A stretch of DNA of 64,000 bases from Escherichia coli (lineage in GTDB: Bacteria > Pseudomonadota > Gammaproteobacteria > Enterobacterales > Enterobacteriaceae). Positions within the stretch are counted from its first letter, which is position 1. Every line of letters starts with the position of its first letter. This document shows, piece after piece, positions 1 through 755 of this stretch. A program made the translations under genes and the position numbers. The notes under the pieces are model-generated. The model saw only the letters and a list, made by a program, of their open reading frames with translations. It did not search any database and had not been told where the DNA came from. Location of the stretch: the NCBI RefSeq assembly GCF_013315695.1, contig NZ_CP054353.1; one strand, 5' to 3'.

Positions 1-518
1 CGCATTATGTTACTCAGGTGCTGCCGTGTGCGGGACGCAACCTCCAGCAGATCTTTTTCCTCGATCCCTTTCAGCAGGTCAATGAAATGACGGGGTTTAA
101 GTTCTGATACAGGTAGGTTCCCGATGACCGGAAAGATGTGATTGTTCAGGCTGGCAAGCAGACGGTCGGCGGTGTTCTGCGACCATTTCCTGTTACTTTT
201 ATGCCACGCCAGCGCCACGTTTTTAAAAACTTTCTCCGGTGTTCGTGAGCCACGTTCAGCAGCCCGCTGCTGTACCGGGTTGATATTCAGCGCCAGTATT
301 TTACGGATACCTTCACGTTGCTGTCGCGCATCAGACAGGGAGATGGCTGGATAGGCACCCAGCGCAATGCGGGATTCTTTACCGCTAATACGGTATTTGA
401 GATACCAGTGGCGGGAGCCACCCGGCTTGACCCGCAGATACAGACCGTGAGAATCGGAGACTTTAAAGGGTTTATCAGAAGGCTTGAGGGTGCGGATTTT
501 TGCGTCGGTAAGGGATAT
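1..518 (-). CDS. int: P4-family tyrosine integrase, N-terminal part (gene continues past the left edge of the window)
   Basis: Reverse-strand frame reads ISLTDAKIRTLKPSDKPFKVSDSHGLYLRVKPGGSRHWYLKYR...; sits directly downstream of the tRNA-Asn 3' end in the same orientation; no canonical ATG in frame (ATA at 516-518). Confidence 0.75.
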   Translation of the reverse strand, partial: MSLTDAKIRTLKPSDKPFKVSDSHGLYLRVKPGGSRHWYLKYRISGKESRIALGAYPAISLSDARQQREGIRKILALNINPVQQRAAERGSRTPEKVFKNVALAWHKSNRKWSQNTADRLLASLNNHIFPVIGNLPVSELKPRHFIDLLKGIEEKDLLEVASRTRQHLSNIM

Positions 519-679
519 ATGGGGGTCACTCCATTATCGAACTAACCTGACCCCAGATTTGACCACCAATTTTTCCCGATGCGTAGGGTAAAATCAAAAT
601 GCACCGAGAAGAGTTTTCACACTAACCTGTTGAATCAACATCAGATAAAGATTCGCAAGGATGCATGAAAACAGAAAAT

Positions 680-755
680 TGGCTCCTCTGACTGGACTCG
701 AACCAGTGACATACGGATTAACAGTCCGCCGTTCTACCGACTGAACTACAGAGGA
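680..755 (-). tRNA. asnT: tRNA-Asn (GUU)
   Basis: 76-nt cloverleaf on reverse strand, TCCTCTGTAGTTCAGTCGGTAGAACGGCGGACTGTTAATCC...GGAGCCA, anticodon GTT. Confidence 0.95.

Follow-up and report, generated by a model that had tools for sequence, protein, structure and literature searches.

An integrase allele with a derived ATA start codon in the fixed asnT high-pathogenicity island of Escherichia coli

At the left edge of a 64,000-nucleotide stretch of Escherichia coli DNA, hereafter the window, an integrase gene follows directly on a tRNA-Asn gene, and the codon expected to be its start reads ATA. A sequence-only reading of the window suggested that the gene may be a start-codon mutant and saw in this a hint that the island is fixed. 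The locus thus raises two questions: whether the ATA is a lost start, and whether it has anything to do with the immobility of the island. The features on which the answer depends are the following, with the basis of each in brackets.

1..518, minus strand: 5' part of the integrase gene intB, codons 1-173 of 420 (translation; the PGAP CDS 19256..20518 of locus L001 corresponds to window ..518)
52, minus strand: G156D, gene nt 467, derived, present only in the window/SE15 allele among the sampled alleles (allele comparison)
216..218, minus strand: GTG, codon 101, the first canonical in-frame start 3' of the ATA (ORF inspection)
297, minus strand: M74I, gene nt 222, derived, present only in the window/SE15 allele among the sampled alleles (allele comparison)
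433, minus strand: L29R, T>G at gene nt 86, in the core of the arm-binding domain, derived (allele comparison)
516..518, minus strand: ATA at the ancestral ATG start position of intB, M1I, G>A at window position 516 (translation and homologue alignment)
519..679, minus strand: 161-nt leader from tRNA to int, attL side (tRNA 3' end to ATA)
529..532, minus strand: Shine-Dalgarno-like GGAG, 10 nt 5' of the ATA/ATG (context TAATGGAGTGACCnCCAT-ATG in homologues)
534..536, minus strand: TAA stop, in frame, 5' of the ATA (translation)
679..695, minus strand: 17-bp att core, or left direct repeat, CCAGTCAGAGGAGCCAA, at the 3' end of tRNA-Asn (sequence match)
680-755, minus strand: tRNA-Asn (GTT), asnT (ARAGORN; named asnT by its neighbours mtfA and serU)
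774..802, minus strand: sigma-70 promoter-like TTGACA-17-TAATAT upstream of asnT (10/12 matches, consensus match only)
856-1692, minus strand: mtfA (neighbour of asnT)
1747-1836, plus strand: serU, tRNA-Ser(CGA) (neighbour of asnT)

On the minus strand, the reading frame downstream of tRNA-Asn begins LVR*WSDPH-ISLTDAKIRTLKPSDKPFKVSDSHGLYLRVKPGG..., and translation of window 1-545 gives LVR*WSDPH-ISLTDAKIRTLKPSDKPF.... The frame remains open for 172 codons after the ATA and then leaves the window at position 1. What lies inside the window encodes the arm-type DNA-binding domain (aa 3-87) and the greater part of the central domain (aa 98-191); the catalytic domain is beyond the left window edge. 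The absence of a canonical start, as first noticed, is confirmed: an in-frame TAA lies five codons upstream of the ATA, and none of the intervening codons (TGG AGT GAC CCC CAT, 0/5) is ATG, GTG or TTG. The duplex of the GGAG with the anti-Shine-Dalgarno sequence is predicted at -5.9 kcal/mol, and no terminator-like site was found in the leader at 519..679. The repeat CCAGTCAGAGGAGCCAA, the known att core of asn-tRNA islands, matches once in the whole window.

Positions 1-780 of the window are 100% identical to many independently sequenced complete E. coli genomes, including SE15, where the gene order is serU, mtfA, tRNA-Asn, integrase, ybtS, ybtX, ybtQ, ybtP, ybtA, irp2, irp1, ybtU, ybtT, ybtE, fyuA and yeeJ remnants. 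This identity together with the SE15 gene order makes the tRNA gene asnT and the island the yersiniabactin high-pathogenicity island (HPI), known as PAI IV in strain 536. The identical genomes thus show window 1-755 to be the left (attL) junction of the HPI at asnT in its E. coli form. The guess of an HPI-type element was therefore exact, since in the identical genomes the sequence continues leftwards from ybtS to fyuA; the yersiniabactin cargo lies outside the window and was read from genomes such as SE15. The integrase of the HPI is named intB in the literature (PMC2801613; PMC9686529). Insertion at an asn tRNA with intB as first gene was found in the window, the ybt/irp/fyuA cargo in the SE15-type identical genomes, and the loss of the fyuA-side repeat, which sets the fixed type of E. 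coli apart from the mobile types of Yersinia and the ICEs, in SE15. The HPI at asnT with intB is thus a textbook element, already described, in its known fixed state.

The integrase itself is of the P4 type, as the sequence-only reading had stated. In the full-length SE15 copy, which is identical to the window over the shared part, Pfam identifies Arm-DNA-bind_3 (aa 3-87, E = 5e-24), Phage_int_M (aa 98-191, E = 2.5e-24) and Phage_integrase (aa 224-384, E = 8e-20). The same copy has an HxxR motif at 342-345 within a catalytic part that lies outside the window and matches the Pfam catalytic domain. By tblastn, intB shows 48.4% amino-acid identity to the Int of phage P4 (X51522 / NC_001609) over 99% coverage (E = 1e-124). 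The three-domain architecture, the full-length similarity to P4 Int and an int gene beside a tRNA 3' end holding the att core are all present. The assignment to the P4 family is therefore plain.

The locus had also been called a second island at tRNA-Asn. A second island does exist in the window, but asnT is its only tRNA-Asn gene, and the other island is a prophage at tRNA-Ser. There, a second tyrosine integrase (1889-2914, minus strand) directly follows the serU tRNA-Ser(CGA) gene (1747-1836), and phage-type genes (exonuclease, DnaT-like, DUF968 and others) continue to at least ~25000, with tRNA-Met (17368-17443) and tRNA-Arg(TCT) (17544-17618) genes among them. This serU region resembles a lambdoid prophage. 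Over window 1-25000, the best complete genomes reach 97% coverage at 99.7% identity; SE15 lacks the serU prophage, zinT following serU there.

Whether the ATA is a lost start depends on what homologues have at this codon. We aligned six other E. coli alleles from asnT, asnV and asnU, including a non-HPI island and an ICE-type context, and all six have ATG in otherwise near-identical DNA. Alleles were then sampled evenly down the ranked matches of an 89-bp query. Of 15 non-identical E. coli alleles in total, 13 have ATG in the same Shine-Dalgarno context, and the remaining two, with ATA, are one-mutation derivatives of the window allele. For other species, one genome per bacterial species was scanned with a 20-mer inside int, which gave 20 true homologues from Klebsiella, Raoultella, Citrobacter, Phytobacter, Erwinia, Mixta, Kosakonia, Cedecea, Trabulsiella and other genera; every one of them has ATG. 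One further hit, in an Atribacteria MAG, matched the 20-mer by chance and was set aside. The GGAG in the context TAATGGAGTGACCnCCAT-ATG is found in about 17 of the 20 other-species homologues and in all sampled E. coli alleles. The asn tRNA 3' end was located in 17 homologues, and in 14 of them it lies 213 nt from the 20-mer anchor in int.

Because ATG is present in all 20 other species and in 13/15 of the other E. coli alleles, the alignment makes ATG the ancestral state and ATA a derived one, produced by one G>A transition (window position 516). The proposal of a start-codon mutant is thereby borne out: homologues do not share a non-ATG codon at this position, and no upstream in-frame start exists. 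A start that is non-AUG and conserved among orthologues, as the AUU of infC, is ruled out by the ATG of the homologues, and an upstream in-frame start by the TAA at 534-536.

Of 5426 complete E. coli genomes, 2322 carry the int locus. Seven alleles were counted, as exact 89-mer matches at the best place per genome and not by a full alignment of the 2322 loci:

ATA, window type (including SE15 and Nissle 1917): 800 genomes
ATA, sub-allele of EC10 type: 41 genomes
ATA, sub-allele of GmF067 type: 57 genomes
ATG, CRE10 type: 72 genomes
ATG, O26 type: 323 genomes
ATG, strain 4/0 type: 537 genomes
ATG, strain 258E type: 194 genomes

The ATA allele is therefore found in at least 898 genomes (800 + 41 + 57), about 39% of the 2322 carriers, and the four counted ATG alleles in 1126 (72 + 323 + 537 + 194), while the 89-mers of 298/2322 carriers fall outside the seven typed alleles. 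The other minor alleles that were sequenced (MB1, MSHS 472, DDG220 and CUVET19-1993 types) all have ATG, but the two minor ATA sub-alleles likewise came to light through sampling.

The island is fixed, as had been suspected, and the cause is a different one from the start codon. In SE15, a search with the 17-mer (up to 3 mismatches) over 44 kb matched only three asn tRNA genes and found no fyuA-side repeat, with no match between fyuA and the yeeJ remnant. Deletion of this fyuA-side 17-bp direct repeat is the published state of the E. coli HPI (PMC2606025), and in strain 536 the island, PAI IV536, showed no detectable loss (PMC3202238). Since the right-hand repeat is deleted for this separate, published reason, fixation does not depend on the ATG>ATA change: the island is fixed through loss of the right repeat, independently of the start codon, and the start-codon change is more likely a consequence of fixation than its cause.

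Two side observations concern rearrangement around asn tRNA genes. In SE15 (locus L008, 39837-43465), a truncated MATE transporter (yeeO-like) pseudogene lies between two further asn tRNA genes, beside an intact yeeO, and this extra copy suggests a past rearrangement or deletion between asn tRNA copies in the region. In strain MB1 (locus L004, 1300-1545), no whole asn tRNA gene precedes the integrase: there are only its last ~27 nt, comprising the 17-bp core and the adjoining 5' bases, and a DUF6387-family gene lies upstream of the tRNA remnant and the integrase. The HPI of MB1 appears to be placed behind another element in a tandem island array.

Other signs of decay are present in the gene. 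Set against the six intact ATG alleles, five derived nucleotides are unique to the window/SE15 allele, and each of them is nonsynonymous (M1I, L29R, M74I, G156D and A391T). Residue 29 is Leu in 19 of the 20 other-species homologues, the sole exception being itself a pseudogene. Other E. coli alleles have changes of their own (S2F, D5S, P57Q and more), and the O26 allele has a 347-bp deletion. Across nine full-length E. coli HPI int alleles, with changes polarised by a near-identical Raoultella copy, we counted 21 nonsynonymous and 3 synonymous derived changes. Between-clade comparisons in the same family give dN/dS of 0.07-0.25, for instance 9.5 nonsynonymous to 28.5 synonymous changes, against which the 21:3 differs clearly (Fisher p = 4e-6).

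Values of dN/dS are generally inflated among very close relatives, and for this reason the adjacent ybtS from the same strains was used as a control. In the same seven strains and with the same outgroup, int has 20 nonsynonymous to 2 synonymous changes and ybtS 7 to 7, a contrast that rests on small counts (Fisher p = 0.014). It fits relaxed constraint on the integrase. The 21:3 of int is compatible with neutrality and does not significantly exceed it when set against 76% nonsynonymous sites (binomial p = 0.14).

Decay of this gene is also seen elsewhere. In the HPI integrase of O26:H11 strain 11368 (locus L002, 1545-2460), the ATG is kept, S2F is present, a deletion starts at gene nt 124, and the gene is annotated as a frameshifted pseudogene. 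An intB allele with bp 124-470 deleted was described in other isolates by Paauw et al. 2010 (PMC2801613), and the O26:H11 copy matches it. Among the 20 other-species homologues, nine contain premature stops or frameshifts while ATG is kept in all; eight of these nine stops are well inside the frame and one is at codon 417. Decay of the asn-tRNA-linked intB family appears to be common across genera of Enterobacterales.

We suggest the following course of events. The island would have become immobile first, by deletion of the fyuA-side direct repeat. With the right repeat missing, the integrase would have no partner site for excision, so that purifying selection would no longer keep intB. The int alleles of the E. 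coli HPI are collecting amino-acid changes, and the lineage of the window has lost its ATG by one G>A transition, leaving the Shine-Dalgarno motif and the 420-codon frame of the ATA allele intact. Transcripts probably enter int from the asnT promoter (802-774), since read-through is plausible where no terminator-like site separates tRNA and int, and with the Shine-Dalgarno motif intact ribosomes could still bind. [quoted passage not shown] Initiation at AUA was reported at 1-2% of AUG, or 0.02-3% depending on the construct (bioRxiv 10.1101/063800), so the integrase might be made at roughly 1-2% of the level expected from ATG, and L29R would further damage arm binding. No rescue start is available, the next in-frame ATG, GTG or TTG being GTG101, and a start there deletes the arm-binding domain. 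Taken together, the start-codon change, L29R and the missing attR would most likely leave the enzyme non-functional in practice, or nearly so.

As a whole, this account of a fixed HPI at asnT with a derived ATA and an integrase under relaxed selection is very probably correct. Against it stand an ORF that shows no further disruption along its 420 codons, in SE15 as well as in the two other fully sequenced ATA alleles, with no pseudogene call by PGAP, the near-cognate nature of ATA, which supports some initiation, so that some protein may be made, and the small counts of the seven-strain ybtS control.

It is also conceivable, though rather doubtful, that selection and not mere drift favoured the knock-down of the HPI integrase. 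The 20 nonsynonymous to 2 synonymous changes of the E. coli HPI int correspond to a crude pN/pS of about 3, and of the 21 nonsynonymous changes in the nine alleles, 13 affect codons 1-88, the arm-binding domain, which accounts for roughly a fifth of the protein. Within 263 bp, every pair among codons 1 (ATA), 29 (L29R; window 433) and 88 (E88V; window 256) fails the four-gamete test, with five haplotypes at codons 1-29-88 (I-R-E, I-R-V, I-L-V, M-R-V and M-L-E; loci L008, L039, L040 and L041 are involved). This suggests that the same disabling changes, ATG>ATA included, arose more than once or spread by recombination, two possibilities that the small allele sample does not separate. Recombination is well documented for the HPI. 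If the knock-down was indeed selected, residual IntB would plausibly be harmful, either by acting on the four identical asn-tRNA att sites or by destabilising the neighbouring pks island, which keeps both repeats.

A second way of seeing the ATA gives it a role: it would be a working start of low efficiency, kept by selection to hold the integrase at a very low level, and the gene would be attenuated and not dead. The infC gene uses an AUU start for such low-level expression. The retained Shine-Dalgarno motif and full 420-codon frame, the 1-2% initiation at AUA, the acceptance of ATA by PGAP and the frequency of the allele (at least 898 genomes) are all in its favour. However, conservation of the codon is contradicted by the homologues, all of which have ATG outside this E. 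coli sub-lineage, and the ATA allele has four more amino-acid changes with only one shared synonymous change (nt 1158). One of these changes, L29R, alters a residue that is Leu in 19 of 20 other species, and the right-hand att site on which the enzyme would act is missing from the island, while the high frequency can be explained by clonal expansion of B2-type lineages carrying the fixed island. We consider a selected low-level start unlikely.

Translation might instead restart at GTG101 (window 216-218), the first in-frame ATG, GTG or TTG after the ATA, which has a GGAG upstream, and yield an N-terminally truncated integrase without the arm-binding domain. The GGAG is, however, at least 12 nt from the GTG, the site is inside a translated or structured region, no internal start is indicated by the homologues, and the product, without residues 3-87 (Arm-DNA-bind_3), could not assemble an att intasome if it behaves as other arm-dependent tyrosine integrases do. 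Such a restart is very improbable. That the ATA is a sequencing or assembly error for a real ATG, from which it differs by merely a single base, is hardly credible and was ruled out, as the identical 89-mer is found in 800 independently sequenced complete genomes and further ATA sub-alleles in 41 and 57 more.

The loss of the start in an already fixed island thus remains the preferred reading, and it has a consequence for annotation. In the three ATA alleles examined (3/3), PGAP takes the ATA as the first codon of a normal CDS of 1263 nt and 420 aa, with no pseudogene flag; the RefSeq protein of the allele is WP_024175719.1. ATA is a permitted initiator in translation table 11. The ATG>ATA allele is thus widespread and already in RefSeq. 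A common integrase allele, present in Nissle 1917, SE15 and hundreds more, is annotated as an ordinary coding gene despite its derived ATA "start", and its annotation as an intact integrase is probably misleading: scoring the mobility of islands by the presence of an intact integrase would overrate an HPI with this allele. We found no mention of the ATG>ATA allele in the HPI and pks papers searched, among them PMC2606025, PMC2801613, PMC8209727, PMC9686529 and PMC3202238. Once the loss of its right repeat had locked the HPI in place, the integrase started to decay by several independent routes, which adds a small, consistent detail to a known story.

Compared with known systems, the window copy shows no structural difference from the "truncated" HPI of E. 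coli (PAI IV536), with which it shares asnT by mtfA and serU, the 17-bp core, the integrase, the yersiniabactin cargo (in the identical genomes) and the missing right repeat (PMC2606025, PMC9686529, PMC8209727). The mobile HPI and ICE forms (the HPI of Y. pseudotuberculosis, ICEEc1 of ECOR31 and ICEKp1) have the same integrase family and the asn-tRNA att site; alleles at asnV and asnU and in Klebsiella and Raoultella have 97-99.5% DNA identity to the window-type int. The mobile forms keep both 17-bp repeats and an integrase started by ATG, and they excise (PMC2801613), whereas the window-type copy has neither the right repeat nor the ATG. With P4 Int, intB has the three-domain architecture in common, and both integrate at a tRNA 3' end, but P4 uses leuX and intB the asn tRNA genes, and P4 Int belongs to a functional satellite phage while intB is a remnant in a fixed island. 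The deleted intB alleles (bp 124-470) of the O26 lineage and of Enterobacter isolates represent another decay route of the same HPI gene: they keep the ATG and lose 347 bp, whereas the window allele keeps its full length and loses the ATG.
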